Assembly (NCBI GenBank): GCA_020848435.1 | Contig: JADLAC010000037.1 | Location: forward strand, 2,551 to 66,550 | Reading direction: 5' to 3' | Length of the DNA: 64,000 nucleotides | Source of the DNA: Burkholderiales bacterium | GTDB lineage: Bacteria > Pseudomonadota > Gammaproteobacteria > Burkholderiales > WYBJ01 | Shown here: piece by piece, positions 5,114 through 30,597 of the stretch | Layout of the letters: the number at the start of each line of letters is the position of its first letter | Numbering within the stretch: the first letter of the stretch is position 1 | Notes under the pieces: model-generated | What the model was told of the DNA's origin: nothing | Seen by the model: the letters and a program-made list of their open reading frames with translations, nothing else | The model's database searches: none | Translations under genes and position numbers: made by a program

Positions 5114-5171
5114 GGCGAACGCTCAGCACGGGATCCGGCACGCCATTCGGTCCTCACGAAAGAAGACGAAC

Positions 5172-6545: not shown

Positions 6546-6704
6546 CCGCGACGATACGCGAGCCGCCTCGGCCACGATCGCGCGCGGCTAGCCGAGGAAC
6601 TGCTGCCATCGCGGCGCACGCAGGTCGAGATGACGATATCGAACCGGCATCGAACGGATGGATTCGCCGCCGGGTCGACCTGAGCGATCCGGAACCGCCG
6701 GGTC

Positions 6705-7667: not shown

Positions 7668-7777
7668 GGTTCCTCCGTCCCCGTTTCTCGCGGACAAGGA
7701 GGTCCGGCGCGAAAGCCGGCTGCCTCGTGATGCGCACCAGTAGCATAAACTTACGCTATTCATCCAGGGGAGGGGTC

Positions 7778-8770: not shown

Positions 8771-8897
8771 CGCTGCTGATCGCGCCAGGCACGCCGTCGT
8801 GGCTCGGCGAACGGCGCACAACGCACGCGCCTGGCTCGAGGCGCGCGCCGTATCGGGTTCTAGAATGGCGCTCGAGCATCGACCTCGGACCGGGAGA

Positions 8898-10343: not shown

Positions 10344-10363
10344 GCGGCGCGCGGCGGATCGCA

Positions 10364-11356: not shown

Positions 11357-11431
11357 GGGAGACCATCCGTATGTTCAGAGCAATAGCACGCATCCCGGCA
11401 GCGACGCGCACGTGGTGTGCCGGCTGCGCGT

Positions 11432-12400: not shown

Positions 12401-12706
12401 TCTGAATAATCATCCGAAAGACAGACGCCGTGCTTGGGCGCGAAGCTCGCGCACCACGCACCCTTGCGCGTCGAGCACGCGAGCCGATGGCAATGATAGC
12501 CGGACACGCGCCACGCCGTCGCGCCGCGCGGTCGCGTCCGACGCGCTGTTCGTGCAGCGTCGCTTCCCGGCGACGGCAGTGGCAGCGCCTCGGTTGTACA
12601 CACCGACGCTCGGCAGCGGGCATGCGTCGTGCAATTCCTTGGTCGCCACATCCGACAGGAGCAAGCCGTGGAAGTCATTGCAATGATCTGAATCGAGAAT
12701 CAAGCC

Positions 12707-13231
12707 ATGGACACACACACAAGCTCAGCGCGCACGGCGCTGCAAATAGCACTCTTGGCCTGCCTGGGATCGGCGCTCGCTCCGATTGCAGCCTCCGCCC
12801 AGGATCTTCAGCCGCGCAGCCGCACCGTTTTCAAGTGCGAAACCGATAGCGCGACCCTCTATACGGATGCACCCTGCGCCGGCTCCGGCAAGACCGACAC
12901 GGTGCGGCTGCACTTCGCTGCGGCCGCGCAGTCCGATCGAATCGAACCCGAGCTACAAGCAAACACGCCGCGCGATGCCCACGCCGAGGCAGCGCCGGGG
13001 GCCGGCGCGCTCGAACCCAGGCTGCGCGCACAACAACGCATCGCGAGCCTCGCGCACACCCCGCAGGCTGAATGCCCGCACCTGAGCCAGCGCATGGCGT
13101 TGGTGGAAGCCGAGGAACGCACCGCGACGAGCTTTACCATTCGCGCCATCCAGGACCGGCTCACCGTCCAGCGCAATCGCTTCCGCGAGCTGGGTTGCGA
13201 GCAAGTCGGATTCCAGATGACATTGGGCTAG
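12707..13231 (+). CDS. Secreted hypothetical protein, DUF4124-like N-terminal motif
   Basis: Signal peptide MDTHTSSARTALQIALLACLGSALAPIAASAQ. The following ...VFKCETDSATLYTDAPC... resembles the DUF4124 signature. The rest is low-complexity and helical. No clear RBS. Confidence 0.5.
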   Translation: MDTHTSSARTALQIALLACLGSALAPIAASAQDLQPRSRTVFKCETDSATLYTDAPCAGSGKTDTVRLHFAAAAQSDRIEPELQANTPRDAHAEAAPGAGALEPRLRAQQRIASLAHTPQAECPHLSQRMALVEAEERTATSFTIRAIQDRLTVQRNRFRELGCEQVGFQMTLG

Positions 13232-13324
13232 GCCTGCGCGCACCAGTAGACGCCGAGCTTCGCAGGTCACCCGGGGGTGCGCTGCGTTGCGCTTTCGCCG
13301 TAGTAGGGGAACATGGCGCGCCGT

Positions 13325-14692
13325 CTATTCCCGCAACAGCGCACCGAGCGCCCGGACGCTCGGCAAACGGGCGCTATCAGCCACGGTCGCGATGAGGCTC
13401 GCGACGGCCGCTGGCGGCTGCGTGCGACCGGCGAGCCGCTTGAATTTCTCCAATAGCTCCGTGTGTGTACAAGGGTCGGCGGGCATGCCATGCGGATCGA
13501 GCACGGCGCCGCTCTTGCACTCGCCGTTGGCGAGCTCGAGCTCGACTCGCGCCCCGTAGTGCCGCGGATAGGCGGCCTCCATTTCCGGATCGACCACGAT
13601 TTCGATTCGACGCGCGGCCACGCGCCGATCGGGATCATCGACTGCCTCGGCGGAATACATCGCCGGATCCGCGGGGTCGCCCATGAGCGCCAGCGCACAG
13701 CAATAGGGAATGCTGAACTGCGCGCCGAAGGTATCGAGCGGAGCGACCGCCCCGTTCTGCGCTTTCGCATACGCGGACACGCCGACACGAACCTTGGCAA
13801 TTTCGTCGAGCGCGAGCGGCCGCGGCCCGCGCATCGTCACGAGCTGCTGCACCGCGGCCTGGATCCATGCGCAGCAGGGATAGATCTTCACGTACACATG
13901 CTCGACCGCCCAGTGCTCGCCGAGACCCGCGCGGAGCCGCTCAGGCTGGGCGCCATCGCCGGCGATCACGTCCAACAGGCCGAAGCGGCCATCGAGCGCC
14001 GTCGGCGGCGCGGTGAAGCCGCGCGCCGCGAGCTGCGCCATGCGCAGCCCGGCCTCGGCGGCGCGGCCCGCGTGCATGCGCTTTTCCATGCCGCCACCGC
14101 CCCCGGTCGCGAACGCCTTGGTTCCCGACGCGCAGGCGCAAGCAAGACACACCGCTGTGAAGAGCTGATCCGCCGGCAGGCGCAGCACCACGGCCGCCGC
14201 GGCGGCGGCGCCGAGCGGTCCCGCGACCGCCGTCTTGTGATAGCCGCGCTGCGCTGGCGCCACTCCCAGCGCGAGACCGACCCGATTCAACACCTCGTAG
14301 CCCGCGATGATGCCGAGCAACAGGCGCGCCCCGCTGGCATCGATCGCCTCGGCGGCGGCAAAGGCCGTGGACACCACGATCGCACCCGGATGGACGATCG
14401 CCTCGTCGAGATGGTCGTCGAGCTCGAAGCCGTGCGCGGCCGTGCCATTGCACAGGGCCGCCGCCGGCGCGGGTACCGTCCGCCGATGACCCACGATGGT
14501 CGAACGACCGGTCGCAGCTTCGGCCAGCATTTCGGCGGCCATGATGCGCGACCACGGCTCCGGCGCACCGAAAAGCGCGCAGCCGAGCGTATCAAGCAGC
14601 GCCCATCGAGCGGCCTCGGCCACGCTCGCGGGCGCCGCGGCCAAGCGGAGGCCATGCAGGAAATCGGTAAGCTCGCGCGCGCAAGCCGTCAT
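13325..14692 (-). CDS. MmgE/PrpD family protein (2-methylcitrate dehydratase superfamily), paralogue 1
   Basis: 455 aa. ...LLDTLGCALFG...ALCNGTAAHGFELDDH...VHPGAIVVSTAFAAAE...GYEV..., the typical PrpD N-domain pattern. It starts 9 nt after the stop of the upstream reductase gene. Confidence 0.9.
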   Translation of the reverse strand: MTACARELTDFLHGLRLAAAPASVAEAARWALLDTLGCALFGAPEPWSRIMAAEMLAEAATGRSTIVGHRRTVPAPAAALCNGTAAHGFELDDHLDEAIVHPGAIVVSTAFAAAEAIDASGARLLLGIIAGYEVLNRVGLALGVAPAQRGYHKTAVAGPLGAAAAAAVVLRLPADQLFTAVCLACACASGTKAFATGGGGGMEKRMHAGRAAEAGLRMAQLAARGFTAPPTALDGRFGLLDVIAGDGAQPERLRAGLGEHWAVEHVYVKIYPCCAWIQAAVQQLVTMRGPRPLALDEIAKVRVGVSAYAKAQNGAVAPLDTFGAQFSIPYCCALALMGDPADPAMYSAEAVDDPDRRVAARRIEIVVDPEMEAAYPRHYGARVELELANGECKSGAVLDPHGMPADPCTHTELLEKFKRLAGRTQPPAAVASLIATVADSARLPSVRALGALLRE

Positions 14693-14701
14693 TGCGAAAT
14701 C

Positions 14702-16786
14702 CTAAATGCTGTTGCCGACCCGCGCACCGTCGTGAATCGCGTGCAGGATGGTACGTCCCTGCACACAGTCCCCGGCCGAATGGACCGCAAAGGGCCCGCC
14801 CGCGAGCGCTTCGGCCAGCGCCGGATTCGGCGCCAGCGGCAAAGCCGTGATCACGCTATCGGCCGGCAGGGTTTGCACGCCGCCATCGCTCGTGCGCACG
14901 ACGACGCCCTGCGCCGTGATCTCCCGGCACTGCGCCCGGGTAAGCATCGTGACCCCTTTCTCGGCGAGCCAATCCAGCAGGCGAGGTTTCATCGCGGTGG
15001 GAATGCCTTCGCCCAACTGGGCTGACTCCTCGACCACGGTCACCTGACGGCCGCGCTTGACCAGAAAGGCGGCGCTCTGGCACCCCTGCAACAAGCCGCC
15101 GACAACAACGACGCGCTTGCCGACGGGCAGCCAGAACCGGGTCATCCCTCCCAAGACCCGCGGCCCGAAAAGCCTGAGATACGGCGCAGCCAAGCGGCCG
15201 AGCGTCGCACCGCTCAGCACATTCGTGCGCTCTATGCCGGGTATCCGCGGGGAAACGTCCTGTCCGCCGGCGGCAACGATGATGACATCCGGATTGAGCG
15301 CGCGCGCCATCGGCGCCGTGAGCTCTCGGCGCAGCATGATGCGCACGCCGAGTTTTCGGAGCTGGGTTTCGAAGTAGGCGATGAGCGCCGGCAAGTCCTC
15401 GATGGTCGTGCTCTTGATCAGCGCCGCCAGCGGCATGGAGCCGCCGAGGCGATGCGACTTCTCGTAGAGCACGACCGCATGACCTCTGGCAGCGGCAACG
15501 CGCGCGGCTTCCATTCCGGCGGGGCCTCCGCCCACCACGACGACACGCTTTTTCGCCGCGACCGGCCGTATCGCGTACTCCTGCTCTCTTCCCAAGGCCG
15601 CGTTGACTCGGCACGCTGCCGGCCGGTATCTGCCGAACGCTGTGCGGCATTCCAGGCAGGCCATGCACGGCCTGATGTCCTCGGGTCTGCCCTCGAGCAG
15701 CTTTCTGGGCAATGCCGGATCGGCCATCAAGCGCCGGCCCATCGCGATGGCATCGGCCATACCATGGCGCAGCACCCGCTCACCGAGCGCCGGGCCCAGG
15801 CTGCCCACGGCGATCACCGGAATCTTGACCGCCTGCTTGATCGCGGCAGCGCGGCTTGCTATGACCCCCGGCTTCCTGACGAGCCGTGCCAGCGGCACGC
15901 TCGGCTCGGGGTAGAGCAACTGCTCGGGGTATTGCACCCACGAATAAGCACCGTAGCCGTAGCCCCAACCCGTGACGTGAATGATGTCCAGACCCGCGCG
16001 CTCGAGTATGGTCGCGAATGCCACGCTTTCTTCGGAGGTGATACCGAGCTCGTGGCCCCACTCCTCGCCGTTGACGCGCATGCCGATCGCGAAATCGGAT
16101 CCGACCCGCGCCCGGATCGCGCGCACGATGTCGGCCGCGAATCGGGCCCGGTTTTCGAAGCTCTGAGCGCCGTAATCGTCGTCGCGCCGGTTCCAGGCTC
16201 GCGACAGGAAGCTGTTGACCAGGTACGAGTGCCCAGCATGCACCTCCACGCCGTCGAAGCCGCACTGCTTCGCGCGCCATGCCGCCGCGGCGTGCTTCTC
16301 GACGCTGCGCTCGATATCGGCCAGCGTCATGGCGCGCGGCGGATCGTAGGCGACTCTAGGATCGGATACGGGCAGCTCGCCGGCGCTCAGCGCCGATGCC
16401 GCCAAGGGCGGCATACTCGCGAATTTCGCGGCCGGACCATTGTGGCTCAGTTGCAGAAAGGTCGGGCAGGCGTGCGCGTGGATCGCTGCGGCCAGGCGTG
16501 AGAACGAAGGCATGAACGCATCGTCATCGATGCGCAGCCGGTTCTCCCCCTTGCCGCCGATCGGATAGTCGACGCAACTGCTCTCGACGATCAACAGCCC
16601 GACCCCGCCCTGCGCGAGCGCCTCGTAATGGGCGAGCTGCATCGCGCTCGCGTTGCCGTCCTCGGCCGCGAAACCCAGCACTTGCGCGGGCTTGACGATG
16701 CGGTTGCGCAGCGTGACCTGGTTTACCCGCAGCGGCTCGAGCAGCCGGGGAAAGTCGTGGCGGATGGCTTCGCTCGCCTCAGCCAT
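14702..16786 (-). CDS. OYE-family FMN / Fe-S / FAD-NAD(P) oxidoreductase (2,4-dienoyl-CoA reductase FadH-like architecture)
   Basis: 694 aa. N-terminal TIM-barrel OYE part (...LRNRIVKPAQ...VEVHAGHSYLVNSFLS...), a Cys cluster RPCMACLECRTAFGRYRPAAC, then dinucleotide folds VVVVGGGPAGMEAARVAAARGHAVVLYEK and ...RVVVVGGLLQGCQSAAFL... Confidence 0.85.
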   Translation of the reverse strand: MAEASEAIRHDFPRLLEPLRVNQVTLRNRIVKPAQVLGFAAEDGNASAMQLAHYEALAQGGVGLLIVESSCVDYPIGGKGENRLRIDDDAFMPSFSRLAAAIHAHACPTFLQLSHNGPAAKFASMPPLAASALSAGELPVSDPRVAYDPPRAMTLADIERSVEKHAAAAWRAKQCGFDGVEVHAGHSYLVNSFLSRAWNRRDDDYGAQSFENRARFAADIVRAIRARVGSDFAIGMRVNGEEWGHELGITSEESVAFATILERAGLDIIHVTGWGYGYGAYSWVQYPEQLLYPEPSVPLARLVRKPGVIASRAAAIKQAVKIPVIAVGSLGPALGERVLRHGMADAIAMGRRLMADPALPRKLLEGRPEDIRPCMACLECRTAFGRYRPAACRVNAALGREQEYAIRPVAAKKRVVVVGGGPAGMEAARVAAARGHAVVLYEKSHRLGGSMPLAALIKSTTIEDLPALIAYFETQLRKLGVRIMLRRELTAPMARALNPDVIIVAAGGQDVSPRIPGIERTNVLSGATLGRLAAPYLRLFGPRVLGGMTRFWLPVGKRVVVVGGLLQGCQSAAFLVKRGRQVTVVEESAQLGEGIPTAMKPRLLDWLAEKGVTMLTRAQCREITAQGVVVRTSDGGVQTLPADSVITALPLAPNPALAEALAGGPFAVHSAGDCVQGRTILHAIHDGARVGNSI

Positions 16787-16810
16787 GGGGCACCGTGTGC
16801 ATGTCGGGTT

Positions 16811-17758
16811 TCACCTCTCTTTGGCGACAGCCCTGACGATCTTTCCCCAGCGCGCCAGCTCGCTCTTGACATACCCGCGCATGTCCTCGGGACTGCCCGG
16901 ATCGGGCTCGTGCCCCTGTGCGATCAGGCGATCGGCCAACTCGCGATTCGCCAGCGCGCGCGAGGTCTCCGCGTTGAGCTTCAACACGATTTCCGGCGGC
17001 GTTTTCGCGGGCGCCACGACACCGTACCACGTGACCACCTCGAAGCCCGGGAATGTCTCCGCGATCGCGGGCGTATCGGGCATGAGGGTAGATCGCCTGG
17101 TCCCACCGATGCCGAGCAGCGTAAGACGTCCCGCCTTGACGTGCGGGAGCGCCGTGGCGGTGCTGTTGAACAGGAGCTGCACCTCGCCGGCGACCAAGGC
17201 CGTGACCGCCGCCACGCCGCCCTTGTAGCTCACGTGTTGAATGTCGATGCCGGCGTGCAGCTTCAGCAGCTCCGACCCCAGGTGCGGCGTGCTGCCCGTA
17301 CCGAGCGAGCCGATGTTGAGATAGCCCGGCTTGGCCCTCGCCACGGCCGCGAGCTCGCTCACGGTCCGCGCCGGGACCGAGGGATGGGCGACCAGCACCA
17401 TCGGACTCTTGACGATCATGCTGACGAAGGCGAAGTCCTTTAGCGGATCGTAGGGCGTTTCCTTTTGCAACAACGGCGCGAAAACCATCGTTGCGCCCGA
17501 TGCGAGCAGCAGCGTGTAGCCGTCGGCGGCGGCGCGCGTCACGAGCGAGGCGCCAATGATGCCCCCCGCGCCCGGACGCGAATCGACCACGACCTGTTGT
17601 CCCCAGGCCTCGGTGAACTTCTGCCCTAGCAGGCGCCCGACGAGCTCGGCGGGCCCGCCCGCGGCCACGGTATTCACGACGCGGATCGGCCTGGTCGGAT
17701 AGCCCTGGCCGAGGCTGATCGACGTCCAAGTCAAGAGGAGCATCAGCCAAGCCTGCAT
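16811..17758 (-). CDS. Bug/TctC-family periplasmic solute-binding protein
   Basis: ATG 17758 follows AAGGA; the alternative ATG 17785 is 9 codons upstream. MQAWLMLLLTWTSISLGQGYPTRPIRVVNTVAAGGPAE, DSRPGAGG, ADGYTLLL, HVSYKG. The 466-aa track ORF runs into the UbiD gene and is rejected. Confidence 0.85.
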   Translation of the reverse strand: MQAWLMLLLTWTSISLGQGYPTRPIRVVNTVAAGGPAELVGRLLGQKFTEAWGQQVVVDSRPGAGGIIGASLVTRAAADGYTLLLASGATMVFAPLLQKETPYDPLKDFAFVSMIVKSPMVLVAHPSVPARTVSELAAVARAKPGYLNIGSLGTGSTPHLGSELLKLHAGIDIQHVSYKGGVAAVTALVAGEVQLLFNSTATALPHVKAGRLTLLGIGGTRRSTLMPDTPAIAETFPGFEVVTWYGVVAPAKTPPEIVLKLNAETSRALANRELADRLIAQGHEPDPGSPEDMRGYVKSELARWGKIVRAVAKER

Positions 17759-17802
17759 GACAAATCCTTGGTTCAGCTTTCGCATGGCATCAAGCCATCC
17801 GC

Positions 17803-19233
17803 TCAAAGCTCGAATTTCTTGCGCACCCGCTCGAGCAGCTCGGCGCTGCTCTTGAGCGACGGGGGGAACTGGTGCATCCAGTGGAACGGCTTGCACGCGT
17901 ACACCAGTGCCTTGGACGCGGTGATTTCTCCGCGCGCACGCTTCTCGGGCGAGAGCAGCGGATCGGAGCGCATCCCCCAGCAGTTGTCGATCACGTCGAT
18001 GGCGGTGGCCGGATCGCAGCGGGTACCCAGCGCCCACAAGACCTCGCCGATGTTCGAGGGATCGATGTCCTCGTCCACCACGATGACCCAGCGGTTCAAC
18101 CGGTCGTTGATGCCGGTAGCCGCGATTCCCACCTGCTTGGCGTGGCCGGGATAAAGCTGGCGAATCGAGATGATGATCATGATCCCGCTGCGTGCCTCGC
18201 TCGATATCCACAGACCCTGGATGCCAGGCACTTGGTTGTCCAGCTTGTCCCAGACCATCGCGGAACCGATGATGGACGCACCGTTGTAGAAATCGTGCGC
18301 GCCGATGTTCACCGGCGCACCGAAGATGATGGGGTCATTTCGATGCATCACGGACTTCACTTCGAATATGGGCTCCGGCAACCTGTCGCCCGCGAAGTAG
18401 CCGGCCCACTCGCCCATGGGACCTTCGATCCTGGTCTCGCCGCCCGGCAGATGGATCTCGCCCTCCAGCACGATCTCGGCCGTGGCGGGGACGGGAAGCC
18501 CCGTCGTGATGCCCTTGACGGTTTCGATCGGGCGATTCGCCAAGGCGCCGGCATAGCCGTACTCGCTCGTTCCCCACGGTACCGGCAAGGTGGAGGCATA
18601 CCACAGACGGGGATCCTGCCCGCAAACGACGGCGGCGGGCACGCGCATGCCGCGCTCCCAGTACTTGTTGCGGATCAAAGCGCCGTGTCGGCGATCGACG
18701 ATGTGGATCGTGGCCACGTTCTGGTCGAACGCCTGCACGCGGTAGCAGCCGAGATTGACGAAGCCGCTGTCCGGGTCCTTGAGGATGACCATGCCGCCGG
18801 TGATGTAACGCCCCCCGTCGAGCTGGTGCCACTTGGCGATGGGGAACTTGAGAATATCGACGTCCTTGCCGGTGATGACGTTCTCCATGACGGGCCCGCG
18901 CGGGACCTCGACCGGCTCGATCGGTCCCTTGATCGCGTTCAGCTTCTTGCGCAGCGCCTTCACCATCTCGATCTTGCTGGCGTTATGCGGCAAACCCAAG
19001 GCGAGCGCGACGCGGCTCGGTGTGTTCACGACATTGGAGACCACCCGATAGCCCGGGGGGTAGCCCTTGACGGCGTCGAACAGGAGCAGCGGGTTGTTCG
19101 GCACCGCGCACTGCAACTCGGTGATCGCACCCATCTCGAGATCCCAGTCGACCCCTTCGTACAGGCGCAAGTGGTCCTCGCGCTTGACGAGCTCCAGGTA
19201 TTGCCTGAGATCGTTGAATTCCAGTGTGGCCAT
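17803..19233 (-). CDS. UbiD-family (prFMN-dependent) decarboxylase
   Basis: 476 aa, RBS GAGGA. ...LLFDAVKGYPPGYRVVSNV..., ...GGRYITGGMVILKDPDSGFVNLGCYR... and the acidic loop ...RIEGPMGEWAGYFAG... (E-x4-E as in UbiD/Fdc1). Confidence 0.9.
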   Translation of the reverse strand: MATLEFNDLRQYLELVKREDHLRLYEGVDWDLEMGAITELQCAVPNNPLLLFDAVKGYPPGYRVVSNVVNTPSRVALALGLPHNASKIEMVKALRKKLNAIKGPIEPVEVPRGPVMENVITGKDVDILKFPIAKWHQLDGGRYITGGMVILKDPDSGFVNLGCYRVQAFDQNVATIHIVDRRHGALIRNKYWERGMRVPAAVVCGQDPRLWYASTLPVPWGTSEYGYAGALANRPIETVKGITTGLPVPATAEIVLEGEIHLPGGETRIEGPMGEWAGYFAGDRLPEPIFEVKSVMHRNDPIIFGAPVNIGAHDFYNGASIIGSAMVWDKLDNQVPGIQGLWISSEARSGIMIIISIRQLYPGHAKQVGIAATGINDRLNRWVIVVDEDIDPSNIGEVLWALGTRCDPATAIDVIDNCWGMRSDPLLSPEKRARGEITASKALVYACKPFHWMHQFPPSLKSSAELLERVRKKFEL

Positions 19234-19323
19234 CGTGTTTCCTCTTGGCTTCGCATCAATGGACGCGACCAGCTCGCGTCGCGACGTGCTCAGGCTTCGC
19301 CGTCACCCTGACCTGTTCGGCAC

Positions 19324-21009
19324 TTACGTCATGCTGTGGCTGCGCGGAAAGCTCGCGGACGATTCGCGCGCAACCAGATCCGCGATTTCGTCTTCCAGGG
19401 CTTTGCGCATGATCTTGCTGCCGTCGGGGGTCGTCGGCAGCCTGGAGCGCAGCTCGGCGCGCTCCGGGAACTTGTATTTCGCCACGCCCTTCTGTTCGAG
19501 GAAGCGTGCGAGGGAGGCGACGCTCACCGTCTTTCCCGCCACCGGTACGACGAACGCGCAACAGCGCTCTCCGAGCACGGGATCGGGCATCTTGACGACT
19601 GCGACCGCCGCGACCTCAGGGTGCTCCTGCAGCAGCCCCTCGACCTCGGTCGGGCTGATATTGATCCCGCCGCGGATGATGATTTCCTTGATGCGCCCGA
19701 CGATGGTCAAGTAACCCTCGCCGTCCAGAACCCCGAGATCACCGCTGGGGAACCAGCCGTCACGCCCGAGCATCGCCGCGTAGCCTTGGGCGTTGCGCCA
19801 GAATCCGAGTGACATGCCGGGGCCACGGTAGACGACCTCGCCGGCAGATCCAACCGGCAAGGGCTCGCCTGCGCTATCGACGATACGCAACTCCATTCCC
19901 GGCATGGTCCGGCCGACGCTACGGTAGCGTTTCAGCGGCGGATCGTCCGGCGCGGTGCACGTCGGGGTCGCGCCCTCGACGGAGCCATAGGCGGTCAACA
20001 GCACACAGCCGAGCCTGCGCTCGGCCTCTTCGGCGACCGAGGGCGCGATGGCGGCGCCGCCGTTGACCAGGATGCGCAGATTGCCGAGGTCGTATCGGTC
20101 CAGATCGGGCGCTTCGAGCATTTTGACGATCTGGGTCGGCACGGCGACCGCGACCGTGGCCCGGGTGCTTTCCAGCCAGGACAGCGCGTGTTGGGGGGTG
20201 AAACGCTCGAGCAGCGCCATCGAGGAGCCGCCCAGGATCGCGCCGGCCACGCCGACGTAATAGCCCATGCCGCGGGCTATCGGTGCGATCGCAGCGACCA
20301 CGTCCGCGCCGCTCAAGTGGCCACGGTGATCAGCGAATTGGCGGGCCGTCGCCATGAAACAGTTGGCCGTGCGCACGATCATCTTCGGCGCCGCCGTGCT
20401 GCCCGATGTGGTGACGACGAGATCGATGTCGTTGGCGTCAGGGCGCAGGCGTTCGAGCACAGAGCGATCGGTGCGTTGCTCGATGGGATCGCCGAGCCAA
20501 GCGTCGAGACGCTCGCACGCGAGGCCGAGAGCATCGTCGGCGCGCGCGACCACGATCATGCGGATGCTCGGACAGGCCGATTCGAGCTCGCGGATCTCGC
20601 GCACGTAATCGCGGTCGTGATGAACGCGAGGCACCAGCACGCCGGCGGCCTCGGTTGCCGCCAACACGTGCTGTACCTCCTTCTGCCGCCAATCGATCGG
20701 CAACGGAACCGCGATCGCACCGATCTTCGCCAAGGCGAAGCGCATCAAGAGAAACTCGCGCCAGTTCGGCAGTTGTATGCCGAACCGATCCTCCTTCCTG
20801 ATTCCGTGCTCGACCAGGTGCAACGCCAGCCGATCGATCAGGCGGCTCAGCTCTGCGTAGGTCATGCTGCCGCGGGAGTCGATAACGGCGGTTCTGTCCG
20901 GCGCGCCGCGCGCGGTCTCATCGATGTAATCCGGCCAGATTCGATTGCCCCATGCGCCGCAGCGCGTGTAGCGCTCGATCAGCTCGGGCGTAAGTATCGA
21001 CTCGATCAT
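19324..21009 (-). CDS. AMP-dependent synthetase/ligase (acyl- or aryl-CoA ligase)
   Basis: 561 aa. Adenylate-forming signatures ...LVVTTSGSTAAPKMIV..., ...TAYGSVEG... and ...SGDLGVLDGEGYLTIVGRIKEIIIRGGINISP... ATG 21009 overlaps the stop of the upstream gene (ATGA). Confidence 0.9.
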   Translation of the reverse strand: MIESILTPELIERYTRCGAWGNRIWPDYIDETARGAPDRTAVIDSRGSMTYAELSRLIDRLALHLVEHGIRKEDRFGIQLPNWREFLLMRFALAKIGAIAVPLPIDWRQKEVQHVLAATEAAGVLVPRVHHDRDYVREIRELESACPSIRMIVVARADDALGLACERLDAWLGDPIEQRTDRSVLERLRPDANDIDLVVTTSGSTAAPKMIVRTANCFMATARQFADHRGHLSGADVVAAIAPIARGMGYYVGVAGAILGGSSMALLERFTPQHALSWLESTRATVAVAVPTQIVKMLEAPDLDRYDLGNLRILVNGGAAIAPSVAEEAERRLGCVLLTAYGSVEGATPTCTAPDDPPLKRYRSVGRTMPGMELRIVDSAGEPLPVGSAGEVVYRGPGMSLGFWRNAQGYAAMLGRDGWFPSGDLGVLDGEGYLTIVGRIKEIIIRGGINISPTEVEGLLQEHPEVAAVAVVKMPDPVLGERCCAFVVPVAGKTVSVASLARFLEQKGVAKYKFPERAELRSRLPTTPDGSKIMRKALEDEIADLVARESSASFPRSHSMT

Positions 21010-21482
21010 TGGCTTGCGGCCTCTCCCGGCGCGCGCGGCGCCGCGGCAACTCCGGTGCCTGCGGCACGTGACTGCCTGACCACCTCGCGAAAGAACGCGA
21101 TGACGGCGTCCATGCGAGTATCGGTGTCGAACACAGCGCGCACGCCGAGCGCCTTGATCGCCGCGATTTCCTCCGGGTCGGGCAGGAATCCTCCGGCCAC
21201 CACGATGATGTCGTCGATGCCCTGCTCGCGCAGCAGGCTCATGATGCGGGCAAGCGCGGCATAGTGACCGCCGGAGAGCATGCTCACCCCGATGATGTCC
21301 ACATCCTCCTGCAAGGCGATGGCGGTAATTTCTTCGCAGCTCCGATGCAGGCCCGTGTACAGCACTTCGAACCCGGCATCGCGCAAAGCCAACGCCAGGA
21401 CCTTGGCCCCGCGATCATGGCCATCCAGACCGGGCTTGGCGATCAGGACCCGGATCGGCCGCTCGACAGGTGCCGCATTCAT
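21006..21482 (-). CDS. Cobalamin-binding small subunit of an acyl-CoA mutase
   Basis: 158 aa from ATG 21482, 4 nt after the crotonase stop. MNAAPVERPIRVLIAKPGLDGHDRGAKVLALALRDAGFEVLYTG...IIGVSMLSGGH...VVAGG... carries the DxHxxG...SxL...GG base-off/His-on B12 motif set. The upstream part of the 238-aa track ORF is rejected. Confidence 0.9.
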   Translation of the reverse strand: MNAAPVERPIRVLIAKPGLDGHDRGAKVLALALRDAGFEVLYTGLHRSCEEITAIALQEDVDIIGVSMLSGGHYAALARIMSLLREQGIDDIIVVAGGFLPDPEEIAAIKALGVRAVFDTDTRMDAVIAFFREVVRQSRAAGTGVAAAPRAPGEAASQ

Positions 21483-21486
21483 TGCA

Positions 21487-22287
21487 TCAGATCCGAAACT
21501 TCCAGAAGTCCGGCGCGCGCTTCTCCAGGAATGCGCGCGCCCCCTCCTGCTGCTCGTTCTGGTAGAAGTCGGGGCTAAGGACATGCCGGCGTATCGCGTC
21601 GCCGCCTCCGAGCAGCGGCTCGATATCCGCCACAAACGAGCCCTTGAGGACCTGCACGCAGGTGGGCGAGAGGGCGAGAATCTCCCGGCACCACTTGTCG
21701 ACCTCCGCGTCGAGCTCGGCATACGCCACCACGGCGTTGACCAGGCCCCATTCCATCATCTGCGCCGCCGTGTACTTGCGGCATAGCATCCATAGCTCAC
21801 GCGCGCGCTTGTGGCCGAGGATGCGCGCGGAGTAGTTCACGATGGGCCCGCTGGCCGGACTGCCGACGCGCGGTCCGTTCTGGCCGAATACCGCGTGCTC
21901 CGCGGCGATGGTGAAGTCGCAGTAATAGGCGAGATGATTGCCACCGCCGATGGCGTAACCGTTGACCCGCGCGATCACCGGCTTCGGGCAGCGCGAGACG
22001 CTCAAGTGCAAGGAATACGGCTCGAGCACCTGGCGTTCGAGCCCCCCTTGCTTTTCCCAGTTGACATCCCCGCCGGCGCAGAAGGCGCGATCGCCGGCGC
22101 CCGTGAGCACGACGACGCCGATGGCGCGATCCTGGCCCGCGTCCTCGATCGCCAGCGTCAGCTCCTTCAGCGTATCGCCCGTGAAGGCGTTCAACTGCTT
22201 CGGGCGGTTGATCGTGATGCGTGCGACATGGTCCTGCTTGCTGTAGAGGATGTCGTCAAAAGCGTGGTCCGAGCTGAGAATTGCCAT
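21487..22287 (-). CDS. Crotonase-superfamily enzyme, MenB (DHNA-CoA synthase) / BadI-like branch
   Basis: 266 aa from ATG 22287. ...ARITINRPKQLNAF...VVVLTGAGDRAFCAGGD...VNGYAIGGGNHLAYYCDFTIAAEHAVFGQNGPRVGS...ARAFLEKRAPDF... By eye this is closest to MenB/BadI rather than simple enoyl-CoA hydratases. Confidence 0.85.
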   Translation of the reverse strand: MAILSSDHAFDDILYSKQDHVARITINRPKQLNAFTGDTLKELTLAIEDAGQDRAIGVVVLTGAGDRAFCAGGDVNWEKQGGLERQVLEPYSLHLSVSRCPKPVIARVNGYAIGGGNHLAYYCDFTIAAEHAVFGQNGPRVGSPASGPIVNYSARILGHKRARELWMLCRKYTAAQMMEWGLVNAVVAYAELDAEVDKWCREILALSPTCVQVLKGSFVADIEPLLGGGDAIRRHVLSPDFYQNEQQEGARAFLEKRAPDFWKFRI

Positions 22288-22357
22288 GTGAGAGCTTCCC
22301 TGAATCGATCGATGGGCGAGGAATCGGCGAGTCCGCCGGGGGCACTGCCCACCGGCG

Positions 22358-24043
22358 TCACAAGACGCTCGGCGAGCGGTATTCGCCGAACACGTCCTTG
22401 AGCGCGCCGCAGATTTCACCCATGGTCGCGTACGCTTCGACGGCAGCGATGACCGCCGCCATGACGTTCTGATCGCTCGCCGCCACCTTGCGCAGCTCAT
22501 CGAGCGCCGCATTCACGCGTTGCGCATCCCGGCTGGCACGCAGCTTCGCCAGGGCCTCGGCCTGCTCGCGCTCATCGGCGGGATCGACCACGTAGGGCTT
22601 CATCGTGTGTGCCTCGCGCTTTTCGGCAACGAACTTGTTCACGCCGACGCGAACCAGCTCGCCCGCCTCGAACTCCCGCTGCTGACGATAGGCGTCATCG
22701 GCGATCACGCGCTGCACGTAACCGCTCTCGATCGCCTTCACCATCCCGCCCATCACCTCGATGCGCTCGAGCTCCCGCAGGATTTCCTTCTCTATGTCCG
22801 CGGTCAGCGCCTCCAGGTAATAGGAGCCGCCCAGGGGATCGACCACGCTGGTCAGATTGCTCTCGTGACCGACGATGAGCTGGGTGCGAATCGATGCCAG
22901 CGTGGAGTCTTCGCTCGGAATGCCGAGCACTTCGTCCATGGTGCGCAAGCCGATGAACTGGGCGCCGGAGAGCGCCGCCACGATGCAGGCAATCGCATTG
23001 CGCGTCTGGTTGTCGATCGGATGGGGTCGGCAGAGGCTGGCGCCGCCGTTGGTGCTCAAGACTCGCATCATCATGGATTCCGGATTGTTCGCGCCGTAGC
23101 GTTGCCGCACCGTGCGGGCGAAGATCCTTCGCTGCGCGCGAAACTTCGCGATCTCGCCGAAGAAATCGGTGTGATCCTGCGAAATCACGAACGAGAACCG
23201 GGAGGCGAACCGGTCGATGTCCCCGCCCCGAGCCACCACCGCGTCCATGTATGCGATCGCGATGCCCAGACCGAACGCCGCCTCGTGGACCAGGCTGGCA
23301 CCGGCTTCGGACAGGTGGTACTGGCCCATGTTGACCGGAAAGTACTCGGGCAGTTTCTCCATGCAGTACATGAAGCTGTCGACGGCGAGGCGCATGCCGG
23401 CGGCCACCGGAAAGATGTAGTTGCCGCGGCAGATGTATTCCTTCAGGACATCGTTCTGCAGGCTGCCCTTGAGCGTTCCCGGATCGATTCCCTGCTTGCG
23501 CGCGACCCCTACGTGCATCGCCAGCGTGACCATCGCCTGGGCGTTGGACACGGAATTGACGAAGATGGCGCCGACGTCGATGCCGTCGAACACCGTCTCC
23601 CAGTCCTGGAAGGAATTGATGGTCAGGCCCACCTTGCCCACTTCGCCGTGGGAACGCGGATCGTCCGAATCCAGGCCGAGTTGCGTCGGCAGGTCGAAGG
23701 CGAGCGACAGCGCGTTCTGGCCCTGCCGGATCAGGTTCTTGAACAGCAGGTTGGTTTCCCGCGCCTTCGAGAAGCCGGCGTACTGGCGGATCTTCCAGGG
23801 CTGGGCGCGATACATCGTCGCGCTGATTCCGCGCGCATAAGGAAAGGCGCCGGGAAAACCGACATCAGCAAGATAGTCGATACCCCGATCGACCAGGTCG
23901 AGCGGCGTATATACGCGCTGCAAGTCGACCCCGGAATCGTTGCTGAAGCGAGGTTTCTGCTCGCGCTCGAACTCCGCCGCGTGGGCGGCTTCCCACTGCG
24001 CTGCCTCCTGCCTGAGCTTACGGATGAAGTCGTCGGAGTACAT
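22358..24043 (-). CDS. Acyl-CoA mutase large (substrate-binding TIM-barrel) subunit, methylmalonyl-CoA mutase family
   Basis: 561 aa. ...FPGAFPYARGISATMYRAQPWKIRQYAGF..., ...ALSLAFDLPTQLGLDSDDP..., ...LQNDVLKEYICRGNYIFP... and ...MGQYHLSEAGA... align by eye with MCM/ICM/HCM catalytic subunits. It has no fused B12 domain. Confidence 0.9.
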   Translation of the reverse strand: MYSDDFIRKLRQEAAQWEAAHAAEFEREQKPRFSNDSGVDLQRVYTPLDLVDRGIDYLADVGFPGAFPYARGISATMYRAQPWKIRQYAGFSKARETNLLFKNLIRQGQNALSLAFDLPTQLGLDSDDPRSHGEVGKVGLTINSFQDWETVFDGIDVGAIFVNSVSNAQAMVTLAMHVGVARKQGIDPGTLKGSLQNDVLKEYICRGNYIFPVAAGMRLAVDSFMYCMEKLPEYFPVNMGQYHLSEAGASLVHEAAFGLGIAIAYMDAVVARGGDIDRFASRFSFVISQDHTDFFGEIAKFRAQRRIFARTVRQRYGANNPESMMMRVLSTNGGASLCRPHPIDNQTRNAIACIVAALSGAQFIGLRTMDEVLGIPSEDSTLASIRTQLIVGHESNLTSVVDPLGGSYYLEALTADIEKEILRELERIEVMGGMVKAIESGYVQRVIADDAYRQQREFEAGELVRVGVNKFVAEKREAHTMKPYVVDPADEREQAEALAKLRASRDAQRVNAALDELRKVAASDQNVMAAVIAAVEAYATMGEICGALKDVFGEYRSPSVL

Positions 24044-24109
24044 GTTGGTCGATCCCGTGCTCGCGCAGCGTGCGGCTCGTGCCCGGCCGGCATGGGCTGC
24101 CGGTTGATC

Positions 24110-25090
24110 CTACTGCGGTTGCAGCCCGAGCGCCTTGATCAAGCCGGCGTTCTTTCGCACTTCGTCTTGGATGTAGGTAGCGAATTGCGCCGGCGTGCTG
24201 GTCAGCGCCTCGAGCCCCAGGCGCTTGAGCGATTCCTTCGTCTCCGCAGTCTCGATGGCCCGCACCAGCACGGCATTGAGGCGTGCGACGATCTCCTTCG
24301 GCACGCCGGTGGCCGTTACGACCCCGTTCCAGTTCGCGTAGTCGTAGCCGGTCAATCCGGCCTCGTCTAGCGTCGGCAGCGATGGCATCGAGGTCGAACG
24401 CTTGATGCTGGTCACGGCGAGAGGTCTCAGGCGACCGGCGCTGAACAGCGGCTGGAGCGACGGTATGCTGAGGAAGCTCATTTCGATTTCGCCGCCCGCA
24501 TTGGCTGCGGCATTGGCGCCCCCGCCTTTGTATGGCACGTGCAGGATGTTGACCTTGCCAATGAGGTTGAACAAGCCGCCCATCAGGTGCGGCGGGCTGC
24601 CCGCGCCGACCGAACCGTAGCTCAGCTTGCCCGGCATGGAGCGCGCGAGCGCCACTAACTCCTTGACGTTGCGGGCGGGCACGGACGGATGCACCGTCAG
24701 GACGAACGGCGCTGTGGCGACCAGCGCAATCGGGGCCAGGTCGCGCTCGACATCGTAGGGCAGCGAGATCCGCAACGAGGGCAGAACGCTCGCCGTCGCG
24801 CCGATGATCAGCAAGGTGTAACCGTCGGGTCGCGACTTCGCCACCATTTCATAGGCAATCGCTCCGCTCGCCCCGCCGCGGTTCTCGACGATCACCTGCT
24901 GTCCGAGCGGTTCGGCGAGATTGTGCGCGACCAAGCGTCCGACGGCATCGGCAACGCCGCCCGGGGTGAATCCGACCACCAGCCGCACCGGCTTCACCGG
25001 ATAATTCTGCGCGACCGCCGCCGGGGCGGCTGTGCAAGCGAGGATGCCTGCAAGCACCCCGGCCATGCTCCATCTCGACGTTCTCACCAC
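24110..25090 (-). CDS. Bug/TctC-family periplasmic solute-binding protein (first gene of the nine-gene operon)
   Basis: Signal peptide ...RTSRWSMAGVLAGILACTAAPAAVAQ, then NYPVKPVRLVVGFTPGGVAD, ENRGGASG, PDGYTLLI, HVPYKG. The start is taken as GTG 25090 (GGAAGGA just upstream); ATG 25066 is an alternative. The longer 370-aa track ORF runs through the repeat cluster and is rejected. Confidence 0.85.
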   Translation of the reverse strand: MVRTSRWSMAGVLAGILACTAAPAAVAQNYPVKPVRLVVGFTPGGVADAVGRLVAHNLAEPLGQQVIVENRGGASGAIAYEMVAKSRPDGYTLLIIGATASVLPSLRISLPYDVERDLAPIALVATAPFVLTVHPSVPARNVKELVALARSMPGKLSYGSVGAGSPPHLMGGLFNLIGKVNILHVPYKGGGANAAANAGGEIEMSFLSIPSLQPLFSAGRLRPLAVTSIKRSTSMPSLPTLDEAGLTGYDYANWNGVVTATGVPKEIVARLNAVLVRAIETAETKESLKRLGLEALTSTPAQFATYIQDEVRKNAGLIKALGLQPQ

Positions 25091-25116
25091 ATCCTTCCTC
25101 GTGCTTGCGTGCTTGC

Positions 25117-25241
25117 GGTCAGGTCTTGCACGTTTCACCAGCGCGCCGAGGTGTGACCCCAACAGAGGCCTTGCATCGTTCGTGCAACGTGCAAGACCTG
25201 GCCCCCAATTGTGCTTGTGCAACGTGCAAGACCTGACCCCC
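25117..25241. repeat. Cluster of three copies of a dispersed ~22-25-bp repeat (consensus about GTG[A/C]AACGTGCAAGACCTGACCCC)
   Basis: The inverted copy 25117-25138 is GGTCAGGTCTTGCACGTTTCAC. The direct copies are 25182-25206 GTGCAACGTGCAAGACCTGGCCCCC and 25217-25241 GTGCAACGTGCAAGACCTGACCCCC (24/25 identical, 35-bp period). The inverted pair matches 20/22 with a 43-nt spacer. Confidence 0.9.
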
Positions 25242-25244
25242 TAC

Positions 25245-25961
25245 TTACACCTTCTTCGGCGGATGAAATTTCAGGGGCGCCGAACCGGCCGGCAGCCGGC
25301 TGCGGGAGATGCGCTCGAAGTACTGCTCCGGGATGGCTTCCGGCGTCTTGTAGTACAGGTGCACGCAGGGATCGTGGTCGTTCTCCGGCGGCAGGTTGAT
25401 GCGGATCGGGAATCCGCGCGCCTGCGTCGGCAGGATCTCCCACATGATCGCGCAGTGCGTGCAATAGTACGGAACGTCCTTCTTGTTCCACGTCCAGTCG
25501 TGCGCATCCTTCACGCGGGCGACTTTCTTCGTGCGCCTGAGGCGCCCGCCGCTGCCACAAGGATCGCAAGTGACGACGTAGCGGTCCGCTTCCTCCTTGA
25601 CGCTCGTATGGCCGAAATGGCCACGCTGGAACTCGATTCCCCGCTCTAGCGATTGCTTCACGTCGGGGGTCTTGGCAAGCCAGCTCGAGATCAACGGCTG
25701 GTACCTCTTGCGCAGGAGCCGCTCAACTTCGCCGTCACCCGCCACTTCGGCGAGGCGGGTGAGCGCGTCGTCGGCGAACGAGCACATGCTATCGTGCATC
25801 ATCTTCGCTTCCGCACAGCCGTAGTCGATGCCATGGAGCGCATCGTCCGCGCGGCCCTCTTCGATCGCGGCACGCACCTCGTCCCAGGTGGAGCGCGCGA
25901 GCCCCTCTGCGTCCTCGGATCGAATGTCGCGACCGAGCGCCGCGGATGGCCTGATCTTCAT
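25245..25961 (-). CDS. Conserved-looking hypothetical protein with CxxC...CxxC cluster (unknown family)
   Basis: ATG 25961 follows GGAG at 7-nt spacing. The 238-aa protein has a balanced composition (K, E, D, W, Y, H), unlike the Arg/Ala-rich opposite-strand ORFs. Features ...VVTCDPCGSGGRLRR...(about 30 aa)...VPYYCTHCAIMWE... I do not recognise the family. Confidence 0.65.
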   Translation of the reverse strand: MKIRPSAALGRDIRSEDAEGLARSTWDEVRAAIEEGRADDALHGIDYGCAEAKMMHDSMCSFADDALTRLAEVAGDGEVERLLRKRYQPLISSWLAKTPDVKQSLERGIEFQRGHFGHTSVKEEADRYVVTCDPCGSGGRLRRTKKVARVKDAHDWTWNKKDVPYYCTHCAIMWEILPTQARGFPIRINLPPENDHDPCVHLYYKTPEAIPEQYFERISRSRLPAGSAPLKFHPPKKV

Positions 25962-26278
25962 GCCGCATCTCCACGCATCAAACGCCGTCGTAATCAGAAT
26001 TGAATCATCGGCGGCAAACGGCACTCGCCTCCGCCGACGCGTTGCGACTGTTTGCGATTACCGCATCGCGCACGCGCCGATCCGGGCCTGTCCGCCGCGC
26101 CACTCCCACCCGATCCGCAACTATGCATCCTTCCGCGTTCCTTCGTCCAATATCTTTGACGACGCATCTTAATTCGTTTTGCGTATGACCTGTCCGCCAC
26201 GGGCGCGCCATGCTTGACGCACGCCTGCGTTGAGGACACATTGTGGCCGGTCGCAATCGGCATGCAGTGGAGAAGCGG

Positions 26279-28341: not shown

Positions 28342-28401
28342 GTCGCGTCTCCGGTTTGCTCGCGATTGCCGGGATGTGAATCGGCCAGCGCGGCGTACGC
28401 C

Positions 28402-29379: not shown

Positions 29380-29424
29380 CGCTATCTCTCCTGTATGTAA
29401 CGACGAGTGTCTGCGCGCCTCGCC

Positions 29425-30384: not shown

Positions 30385-30597
30385 ACCCGATCCTTCGTGT
30401 CCGGGCGTCATCGCGGGCGCGGGTTGCATTGACGCAGCAGCGGCGCGATTCGTTCGCAGCGTGCTTGAGCAGCCTCTTACCCCGCGCGCGCACGAGGTCT
30501 CGCGTGCCTCGCAAAGACATCGCCATGAGCGCCCGATGCTACACTGCAAGTGGCTCTGGCGTCAGACGCGCGACTCACGACGAACGAGGACGGCGAC

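Follow-up and report, generated by a model that had tools for sequence, protein, structure and literature searches.

Closest described systems and the locus

Acid catabolism based on acyl-CoA mutases is represented by several described gene clusters, which serve here as the reference for a minus-strand gene run at positions 25961 to 13325 of a 64,000-nucleotide stretch, hereafter the window, of a Burkholderiales metagenome-assembled genome (MAG; assembly GCA_020848435.1, contig JADLAC010000037.1, positions 2,551 to 66,550). From its packing and from synteny in relatives, the run is predicted to be a ten-gene operon, reaching from an annotation-free gene, here called UNK, to a gene of the MmgE/PrpD family. 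While acyl-CoA-mutase-based acid catabolism as such is known, what is new here is a rare, non-canonical mutase clade accompanied by a ligase and a MenB-derived crotonase, joined to a module of UbiD, old yellow enzyme (OYE) and PrpD-family proteins, and headed by an undescribed family.

In the hcl-hcmA-hcmB cluster (with meaH) of Aquincola tertiaricarbonis, a split mutase (~560 + ~140 aa) comes with a dedicated AMP-forming ligase, as it does here, and the MeaB-type chaperone of that system has counterparts in four relatives of the window locus (L007, L011, L012, and L098). However, the window ligase is not HCL-like, the 2-hydroxyisobutyryl-CoA mutase (HCM) system has no crotonase partner, and HcmA (4R3U) carries Ile90, Asp117, and Gln208 where the window mutase has Tyr, Ala, and Arg. 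An assignment as HCM was thus rejected and, because these pocket residues differ, the substrate of the window mutase is likely carboxylated rather than hydroxylated. A comparison by pathway logic can be made with IaaGH, the phenylsuccinyl/benzylmalonyl-CoA mutase of the iaa operon in Aromatoleum aromaticum, and with the alkylsuccinyl-CoA mutases of anaerobic alkane degradation. In these indoleacetate and alkane pathways, B12-dependent rearrangement of CoA-activated substituted dicarboxylates is documented: a 2-substituted succinate is activated with CoA, a B12-dependent 1,2-shift gives a substituted malonyl-CoA, and CO2 is lost (PMC8360864). For its part, the window mutase retains the carboxylate-binding Tyr and Arg; in addition, a related locus (L060) holds a family III CoA-transferase and DUF35/thiolase genes, as do the bbs and iaa systems. 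Nevertheless, the window has an AMP-forming ligase for activation in place of a CoA-transferase, and its candidate for the decarboxylation step is a MenB-like crotonase rather than the acyl-CoA dehydrogenase IaaF or a transcarboxylase. The host is a Burkholderiales MAG, and the window encodes no fumarate-adding enzyme.

The Escherichia coli operon sbm-ygfD-ygfG-ygfH (Sbm/ScpABC) offers a further parallel, namely a B12 mutase followed by crotonase-fold removal of a malonyl-type carboxyl, the latter being the role proposed here for the window crotonase. It differs in that the window crotonase belongs to the MenB/BadI branch and not to that of YgfG, the mutase is split and non-canonical, and a ligase replaces the CoA-transferase. 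The anaerobic naphthalene/phenanthrene pathway likewise brings together UbiD, a ligase, a type III OYE aryl-CoA reductase (2-naphthoyl-CoA reductase, NCR), and crotonases, but it contains no mutase, the window UbiD is PhdA-like, family cut-offs are not reached, and the UbiD–OYE pair of a related locus (L003) is ligase-free. Among single enzymes, the closest characterised relative of the window UbiD is PhdA of Mycobacterium fortuitum (7PDA), which depends on prenylated FMN (prFMN) and acts on a free acid, although the two are roughly half identical at best and their genomic contexts differ. The product of the last gene comes closest, among solved structures, to iminodisuccinate epimerase (107 bits) and IRG1/cis-aconitate decarboxylase (CAD; 95–75 bits), enzymes of substituted succinate and aconitate polycarboxylates, to which its similarity is low.

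The literature search returned no characterised cluster combining mutase, UbiD, OYE, and crotonase, only papers on anaerobic degradation of polycyclic aromatic hydrocarbons (PAH) without a mutase, and the iaa operon. NCBIfam profiles placed the enzymes of the run at superfamily or subfamily level, with equivalog cut-offs reached by none. Both results agree with the initial annotation, made from the DNA letters alone, which knew of no characterised pathway for the whole set; so does the restriction of the mutase clade to MAGs and metagenomes.

A predicted carboxylate-type mutase and the other encoded proteins

The large subunit of the mutase is a clear superfamily member (TIGR00641, score 556, cut-off 304), and its best match among solved structures is HcmA (439 bits). 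Its pocket was compared with 4R3U, human methylmalonyl-CoA mutase (MCM), and Propionibacterium shermanii MCM, whose numbering is used here. Results revealed that the MCM substrate clamp of Tyr89, Gln197, Arg207, Tyr243, and His244 is retained (in the motifs RQYAGF, LQND, ICRGNY, and QYH); Tyr89, Gln197, Arg207, and His244 are invariant in the 120 best mutase homologues, with position 243 varying between Y, V, and I. Elsewhere the MCM motif RFHTQTGG (His328/Gln330) is replaced by RVLSTNGG in the window mutase and by R(V/I)(L/F)STNGG in its clade, and NSYDEA (Asn366) by RTMDEV in both, whereas true split MCMs at 46% identity retain the canonical HTQT and NSYDEA motifs. Given these replacements and a score of 467 against the 876 cut-off of the MCM equivalog NF006944, an assignment as canonical MCM was rejected as well. 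The pocket residues therefore point to a carboxylate substrate for an enzyme that would be neither canonical MCM nor HCM, that is, a mutase with a predicted carboxylate-type pocket that is non-canonical elsewhere. The small subunit carries the B12-binding motif DxHxxG as DGHDRG in its translation.

The clade of the large subunit comprises ~26 sequence clusters at 71–86% identity, and the next relatives share 54% or less. In a scan of 185,579 GTDB species genomes, it was detected in four, all MAGs (two Betaproteobacteria, one Burkholderiaceae, and one Rokuibacteriota); the window's own source genome was not among the four loci returned. No homologue of a MeaB-type chaperone was found within the 64-kb window, and MeaB may be encoded elsewhere in the genome. 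The AMP-forming ligase reached no NCBIfam equivalog cut-off, and its best matches among solved structures were aryl-acid adenylating enzymes (salicylate and dihydroxybenzoate (DHB)-AMP ligases, ~240 bits).

The resemblance of the crotonase to MenB and BadI, from which the initial annotation had derived a Dieckmann or retro-Dieckmann chemistry, is real at family level, with MenB the best solved relative (232 bits). Gly86, Gly133 (oxyanion hole), Gly156, Ser161, and Tyr258 of MenB (E. coli numbering) are all retained. However, the catalytic Tyr97 and Asp163 are replaced by Leu and Ala, respectively, which speaks against MenB-type Dieckmann chemistry. Identity as MenB was rejected on this loss and on scores of 270 and 257 against cut-offs of 380 and 343, and identity as BadI on 265 bits against the 468 cut-off of TIGR03210. 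The crotonase is thus taken to be neither; it is proposed to act on the product of the mutase.

For UbiD (TIGR00148, score 278, cut-off 245), the best solved match was phenazine-1-carboxylate decarboxylase PhdA (7PDA), with 354 bits over residues 6–461, compared with 70 bits for phthaloyl-CoA decarboxylase (8OZ5/8PMK). This disfavours the phthaloyl-CoA-type decarboxylation of a thioester that had been suggested earlier, and the corresponding assignment was rejected in favour of similarity to a free-acid enzyme. The motifs NxGxYR (NLGCYR) and EGPxGE (EGPMGE) aligned with PhdA, and we take them to correspond to Asn168/Arg173 and Glu277/Glu282 of Fdc1. Relatives of this UbiD at 63–87% identity come from metagenomes only, and those at 50–59% mostly from MAGs of Chloroflexota and Thermodesulfobacteriota. 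No UbiX-type flavoprotein occurs among the Pfam-annotated open reading frames (ORFs) of the window, although no search aimed at UbiX was made; the gene for a housekeeping UbiX probably lies in another part of the genome.

The three-domain reductase, with its OYE FMN domain at the N-terminus and its FAD/NAD(P) domain at the C-terminus, holds the [4Fe-4S] motif CxxCxxC-x11-C, present as CMACLECRTAFGRYRPAAC in its translation. Its resemblance to NCR proved genuine at family level, as had been claimed (297 bits, vs 196 for FadH), and its best NCBIfam equivalog, mycofactocin OYE_2, gave 409 against a cut-off of 793. For the MmgE/PrpD-family protein, 2-methylcitrate dehydratase PrpD was rejected, with equivalog scores of 56.5, 39.8, and 34.4 against cut-offs of 950, 575, and 458, respectively.

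The two TctC-family binding proteins, Bug1 and Bug2, had been read as a specific sign of carboxylate uptake, but the background is dense: the 64-kb window holds 14 TctC/Bug and 4 PrpD-family paralogues. Since this density predicts as much, the presence of two Bug genes and a single PrpD gene within 11.8 kb says little that is specific. Most Bug genes of the window are paired with a single enzyme gene, the partners in this mosaic including amidohydrolases, luciferase-like monooxygenases, hydrolases, an HpcH aldolase, and a GMC oxidoreductase, among others. Neither TctA nor TctB has a homologue in the window, and so the full set of a tripartite tricarboxylate transporter (TTT) is not present there. 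Against solved structures, Bug1 gave only generic Bug-family matches that are not ligand-diagnostic. Its start codon may be GTG at 25090 or 25087 or ATG at 25066, an uncertainty of up to 24 nt. An orthologue of Bug1 with 80% identity holds the same position in the closest related locus (L098), and relatives with 56–67% identity flank UbiD orthologues in three others (L001, L002, and L017). For Bug2, no orthologue above 45% identity was found in any fetched locus. In a separate observation on this Bug-rich region, two luciferase-like flavin monooxygenase genes flank a TctC gene at 27286–30549 (minus strand), followed by alpha/beta hydrolase and HpcH/HpaI aldolase genes, which looks like another small catabolic unit.

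Operon anatomy and synteny

The run of nine minus-strand genes from Bug1 to the PrpD-family gene (13325–25090) was reproduced by ORF listing and start-codon inspection, with successive gaps of 66, 70, 4, −4 (the ATGA overlap), 90, 44, 24, and 9 nt. Each of the nine was matched by Pfam to its family (E values from 3e-21 to 2e-165), and a third-position GC scan of the run found no credible opposite-strand gene within it. The coordinates, short junctions, families, and uninterrupted strand of the initial annotation thus all stood, whereas its unit of nine did not, as a tenth co-directional gene, UNK, lies 154 nt upstream of Bug1. UNK is counted in the operon because of synteny in relatives. Downstream, the run is bounded by a convergent plus-strand ORF (12707–13231, 174 aa) with a signal-peptide-like N-terminus and no Pfam match, and upstream by a divergent plus-strand TctC/Bug gene (26243–27247).

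GC content in the window is 63–71%, and the promoter and terminator scans used were simple consensus scans, which carry little information in DNA of 66% GC. With this limit, no promoter-like site was detected in the operon region, no sigma-70 consensus match in the divergent intergenic region (25962–26242), and no convincing internal terminator, the four weak terminator-like matches comparing with 7.3 expected by chance. When folded as RNA, neither the 66-, 70-, and 90-nt spacers nor the 3' end of the run proved more stable than shuffled sequence. An Rfam scan revealed no cobalamin or other riboswitch near the operon, and a tRNA scan found none.

Table 1. Features of the predicted operon and paralogous genes of the window (positions within the 64-kb window)
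Feature	Position	Strand	Evidence
MmgE/PrpD-family protein, last gene of the run	13325..14692	-	MmgE_PrpD_N + MmgE_PrpD_C
FMN (OYE)/[4Fe-4S]/FAD-NAD(P) three-domain reductase, 694 aa	14702..16786	-	Oxidored_FMN 1e-55 + Pyr_redox_2 6e-28
Bug2, second TctC-family binding protein	16811..17758	-	Pfam TctC 5e-68
UbiD-family (prFMN) decarboxylase, PhdA-like	17803..19233	-	PF20695, PF01977, PF20696
AMP-forming acyl-CoA ligase, translationally coupled to the B12 subunit by the ATGA overlap	19324..21009	-	AMP-binding 7e-74
B12-binding small subunit of the mutase	21006..21482	-	B12-binding 3e-21; TIGR00640 138 (cut-off 57)
MenB/BadI-like crotonase	21487..22287	-	ECH_1 4e-63
Large subunit of the split coenzyme-B12 acyl-CoA mutase, non-canonical MCM-like clade	22358..24043	-	Pfam MM_CoA_mutase 2e-165
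Bug1, TctC-family periplasmic solute-binding protein	24110..25090	-	Pfam TctC 5e-68
Repetitive extragenic palindromic (REP)-like element, UNK–Bug1 spacer	25091..25240	-	-75 kcal/mol, z = -6.45 vs shuffles
UNK, 238-aa Cys/His-rich protein, probable first operon gene	25245..25961	-	No Pfam/NCBIfam family; orthologues beside the mutase module
Divergent intergenic region, likely operon promoter region	25962..26242		Position between UNK (-) and TctC (+) alone
TctC/Bug genes	7808, 10367, 11444, 16826, 24128, 26306, 28405, 32902, 34997, 36320, 45730, 47783, 51814, 54135
MmgE/PrpD genes	13325, ~44400, ~61700, ~63300

The neighbourhood of each compared locus was examined within 10 kb. This comparison predicts that the operon is a composite of module A (UNK, Bug1, mutase, MenB-like crotonase, B12 subunit, and ligase) and module B (UbiD, Bug2, OYE/Fe-S/FAD reductase, and PrpD), whose boundary between ligase and UbiD coincides with the largest gap among the nine genes (90 nt). 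The core of module A was found again in seven or more loci. L098, the closest relative, carries UNK (79% identity), MeaB, Bug1 (80%), mutase (86%), crotonase (89%), B12 subunit (86%), and ligase in this order, which is that of the window apart from the added MeaB. Orthologues of the B12 subunit (70–86%) and of the ligase (60–74%) adjoin the mutase in every locus of the clade, and crotonase orthologues (79–89%) lie next to it in six distinct loci (L007/L008, L011, L012, L014, L016, and L098). Three loci (L007, L012, and L014) continue after the core with a full beta-oxidation set, TctCBA, UNK, MeaB, and acyl-CoA dehydrogenases. Others contain Asp_Glu_race and aconitase-like genes together with parts of a transcarboxylase (L005 and L016), including an HMGL/PYC_OADA gene in L005, where the crotonase is missing, and a Carboxyl_trans gene in L016, where it is present; in L009, Lyase_1, a PrpD-family gene, and Asp_Glu_race were found.

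Module B, by contrast with the syntenic module A, recurs in pieces only. UbiD orthologues in L001 (83%) and L017 (79%) are accompanied by Bug1-like proteins and by PrpD-family genes that are non-orthologous to that of the window. In L003 (positions 3189–15637 of a contig with 55% GC), a UbiD with 58% identity lies between two long OYE reductases, each 49% identical to that of the window. Next to them are UNK (51%), three genes of the Asp_Glu_race family, and a TAXI-TRAP transporter, and the 10 kb around the UbiD–OYE genes contain no CoA ligase. Loci of this type (L003/L004/L048) may represent a free-acid version of module B. In addition, a contig carrying a UbiD with 73% identity (P0008) has a B12-binding gene 6.5 kb from it.

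At greater distance, the richest family-level parallel to the operon is L060 (positions 1758–18784 of a sediment contig). It encodes a TAXI-TRAP transporter, two MCM-like mutases (44–45%), a B12 subunit, DUF4286, two long OYEs, UNK, a family III CoA-transferase, MarR, a DUF35 and SCPx-type thiolase pair, and a crotonase, families known from the pathways of benzylsuccinate and phenylsuccinate. Mutase, OYE, and UNK also occur together in L028. Judged by these neighbourhoods, the association of mutase, OYE reductase, crotonase, and PrpD recurs in distant lineages at the level of families, not of orthologues, and the exact nine-gene set is unique among the loci reached. The two modules are linked by their co-directional packing, by a Bug1 subfamily that stands beside both UbiD and the mutase, and by UNK, which stands beside both.

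Like UbiD and the mutase, UNK has a 100% identical counterpart among the proteins of a Burkholderiales MAG, in its case the NCBI entry 'hypothetical protein IT531_12515'. It belongs to no Pfam or NCBIfam family, Pfam at E values up to 10 yielding only chance CxxC matches. A word-indexed search among 5.8 billion proteins returned 163 homologues, all unnamed or called 'hypothetical protein', and a profile search returned 827 representative clusters (E up to 1e-3), including forms of 330–560 aa. Seven of these long relatives (P0365, P0369, P0374, P0380, P0413, P0437, and P0442) match the profile in two or three stretches and may be tandem duplications or carry extra domains; no Pfam domain was found in them, and so the fusions offer no functional clue. 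The alignment of the family has invariant C135, G136, G138, and G139 (CGSGG), C167, H169, and C170 (CxHC), C199, and H115, and the invariant Cys and His residues suggest a metal site. Its AlphaFold (AF2) model is confident (predicted local distance difference test, pLDDT, 94), and in a Foldseek search no PDB entry reached an E value under 0.05. The top match, the phenol-sensor domain of PoxR/MopR (template modelling (TM) score 0.38), is a weak lead and not significant.

The neighbours of UNK fall on both sides of the composite. Orthologues with 66–79% identity stand beside the mutase module in five loci (L007, L011, L012, L014, and L098), in four of which UNK directly adjoins MeaB (L007, L011, L012, and L098), and the 51% orthologue of L003 stands beside OYE–UbiD. 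TctCBA sets adjoin UNK in L007, L012, L014, L015, and L028. Moreover, a metagenome scan anchored on UNK yielded 80 loci, and neighbours were counted in the 28 of at least 8 kb (33–61% GC). Short-chain dehydrogenases/reductases (SDRs) were near UNK in 13 of these 28, long OYE/Fe-S/FAD reductases in 9, PrpD-family genes in 4 (in three of these as the next gene downstream of UNK), mutase together with B12 subunit in 3, and UbiD in 1.

The spacer between UNK and Bug1 forms a hairpin whose arms are inverted repeats of 26–27 nt. Because the window contains 7 copies of its palindromic core motif, GTCAGGTCTTGCACGTT, where 0.1 would be expected, the hairpin is regarded as a REP-like element, with further copies at 32354–32401, 36761–36777, and 40060–40076. 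At the position of this element, L098 has its MeaB gene.

Apart from the operon, the window contains a chromate-resistance unit (4233–6545, plus strand), in which a chrB-b cis-regulatory RNA (RF03086, 55.7 bits) directly precedes genes for ChrB (rhodanese-ChrB_C) and the chromate transporter ChrA. It also contains an N6/N4 DNA methylase gene (1349–2206, plus strand) adjoining an ORF without a family match (257–1123).

Proposed pathway, alternatives, and significance

Our preferred reading, held tentatively and at slightly less than an even chance, is that the two modules of the ten-gene operon act in succession on one class of 2-substituted succinate- or fumarate-type C4-dicarboxylic or tricarboxylic acids. 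Uptake would begin with Bug1 and Bug2, passing the acid on to a TctAB permease whose genes lie beyond the window. UbiD, as a PhdA-like prFMN decarboxylase, would take a carboxyl group off an unsaturated or aromatic free acid, the PrpD-family enzyme would isomerise, dehydrate, or decarboxylate a polycarboxylate, and the FMN/[4Fe-4S]/FAD reductase would saturate a C=C bond to give a 2-substituted succinate. The AMP-forming ligase would convert this to a CoA thioester, and the split B12 mutase would shift the thioester group to yield a substituted malonyl-CoA. The crotonase would then remove or use the malonyl-type carboxyl, most simply by decarboxylation, leaving an acyl-CoA for beta-oxidation elsewhere, with UNK as a conserved, putatively metal-binding partner.

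The proposed substrate class is suggested by the carboxylate clamp of the mutase and by the genes around both modules in other loci, which include Asp_Glu_race, FAD_binding_2, Lyase_1, aconitase, MR_MLE, MmgE/PrpD, TctC/Tct or TRAP transporters, transcarboxylase parts, family III CoA-transferase, and DUF35/thiolase; all these families have archetypes whose substrates share a succinate, fumarate, aspartate, aconitate, or arylsuccinate skeleton. A decarboxylation after the mutase fits the other decarboxylation candidates in the related loci, namely the HMGL/PYC_OADA gene of L005 and the Carboxyl_trans gene of L016, and Asp_Glu_race as well. Crotonase-fold decarboxylation has precedents in E. coli Sbm/YgfG and in mammalian ethylmalonyl-CoA decarboxylase. 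Module B, in turn, looks like free-acid chemistry, since its UbiD is closest to PhdA and since the UbiD–OYE genes of L003 lack a neighbouring CoA ligase.

Several observations weigh against this reading. No other locus has orthologues of all the operon genes together, and none of the mutase-clade loci has those of UbiD, the 694-aa OYE, or PrpD within 10 kb; the co-occurrence in other genomes that the initial annotation had looked to was thus borne out for module A and not, at the level of orthologues, for the joining of UbiD and OYE to the mutase. None of the fetched loci has an orthologue of the window PrpD-family protein that exceeds 35% identity, and given the abundance of PrpD and Bug genes in this genome, finding them here weighs little. 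Furthermore, MeaB and TctAB are not in the window, no UbiX appears among its Pfam-annotated ORFs, the 154-nt gap between UNK and Bug1 contains a very stable hairpin, and the crotonase sequence is MenB/BadI-like, unlike the known crotonase-fold decarboxylase YgfG. Finally, the best structural relatives (PhdA, NCR, MenB, and aryl-AMP ligases) point to aromatic or bicyclic rather than aliphatic acids.

The separation of the modules bears most directly on an alternative in which two or three independent catabolic units lie head to tail in a Bug-rich region, the mutase unit (UNK to ligase) followed by a UbiD/OYE/PrpD unit for an unrelated acid, so that a nine-gene pathway would be an artefact of adjacency. 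The mutase quartet and UbiD/OYE/PrpD were indeed found apart in all other loci, none of which has the whole set, and the one fixed nine-gene pathway implied by the initial annotation was not upheld. The coincidence of the largest internal gap with exactly the module boundary, and the mosaic of small Bug-plus-enzyme units in the region (14 TctC and 4 PrpD in 64 kb), likewise favour independent units. On the other hand, all genes are co-directional, and the 90-nt gap has no terminator- or promoter-like site and folds no more stably than shuffled sequence. Proteins of the Bug1 type neighbour UbiD in other loci and yet head the mutase module here and in L098, the rare UNK family stands beside both kinds of module, and distant loci combine mutase, long OYE, UNK, and crotonase (L060) or mutase, OYE, and UNK (L028). 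On balance, independent units seem an unlikely explanation, though one to be taken seriously.

The structural relatives raise instead a route for aromatic or alicyclic acids of the anaerobic naphthalene/phenanthrene kind, in which UbiD (de)carboxylates, the ligase makes an aryl-CoA, an NCR-like reductase dearomatises or reduces the ring, a BadI-like crotonase opens it, and the mutase repairs a branched dicarboxyl-CoA. Such a route would accommodate the best solved relatives (PhdA 354, NCR 297 compared with FadH 196, MenB 232, and salicylate/DHB-AMP ligases ~240 bits), the below-cut-off NCBIfam matches to cyclohexanecarboxylate-CoA ligase, BadI, and phenylphosphate carboxylase beta, and the fact that the literature bringing UbiD together with OYE reductases and crotonases deals only with the anaerobic degradation of PAH. 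However, none of those family cut-offs is reached, the UbiD–OYE pair of L003 has no CoA ligase nearby, and the mutase module precedes beta-oxidation or succinate/fumarate-type genes in other loci, not ring-reducing enzymes. In addition, the mutase pocket, as read from its residues, would require a free carboxylate next to the thioester, and no class I/II benzoyl-CoA reductase or thn-like genes occur among the annotated ORFs of the window. We consider the aromatic route improbable. An ordinary MCM with the crotonase as methylmalonyl-CoA decarboxylase, that is, a Sbm/YgfG-type shunt from succinate to propionyl-CoA with the other genes unrelated, would explain the MCM-like Tyr89, Gln197, Arg207, Tyr243, and His244 and a mutase–crotonase pairing that mirrors E. 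coli sbm-ygfG, but it is very hard to sustain against the low MCM equivalog score (467 < 876), the replaced HTQT/NSYDEA motifs that true split MCMs at 46% identity retain, the dedicated AMP-forming ligase of aryl/medium-chain type that is always attached, and the rarity of the clade (4 GTDB species).

Beyond the preferred two-module reading of this locus, a broader and more doubtful proposal is that the operon is one case of a so far undescribed catabolic toolkit widespread among uncultured bacteria of groundwater and sediment (Burkholderiales, Chloroflexota, and Rokuibacteriota). This toolkit would be organised around the UNK family, whose members would be new metal-dependent enzymes, or would handle a cofactor or substrate, in concert with long OYEs, SDRs, PrpD-family enzymes, and B12 mutases. 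Here the mutase would represent a new substrate class, for a substituted succinate outside the range of known mutase substrates (such as a metabolite formed by fumarate addition, a tricarboxylate, or an alicyclic acid rich in carboxyl groups), and the MenB-derived crotonase would catalyse a new reaction.

Known acyl-CoA mutase specificities amount to a handful (methylmalonyl, ethylmalonyl, isobutyryl, pivalyl, 2-hydroxyisobutyryl, and aryl/alkylsuccinyl), and every newly found one has opened a pathway and provided a biocatalytic tool. With a clade that always comes with the ligase and usually with the crotonase, ligase, mutase, and crotonase form a defined, clonable three-enzyme target for substrate discovery. 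The UNK family, with its confident fold, annotation-free members, and non-random neighbours, offers a handle on metabolic dark matter in the carbon turnover of groundwater and sediment. If the substituted-succinate reading is true, these organisms may consume fumarate-adduct or polycarboxylate metabolites excreted by other anaerobes.

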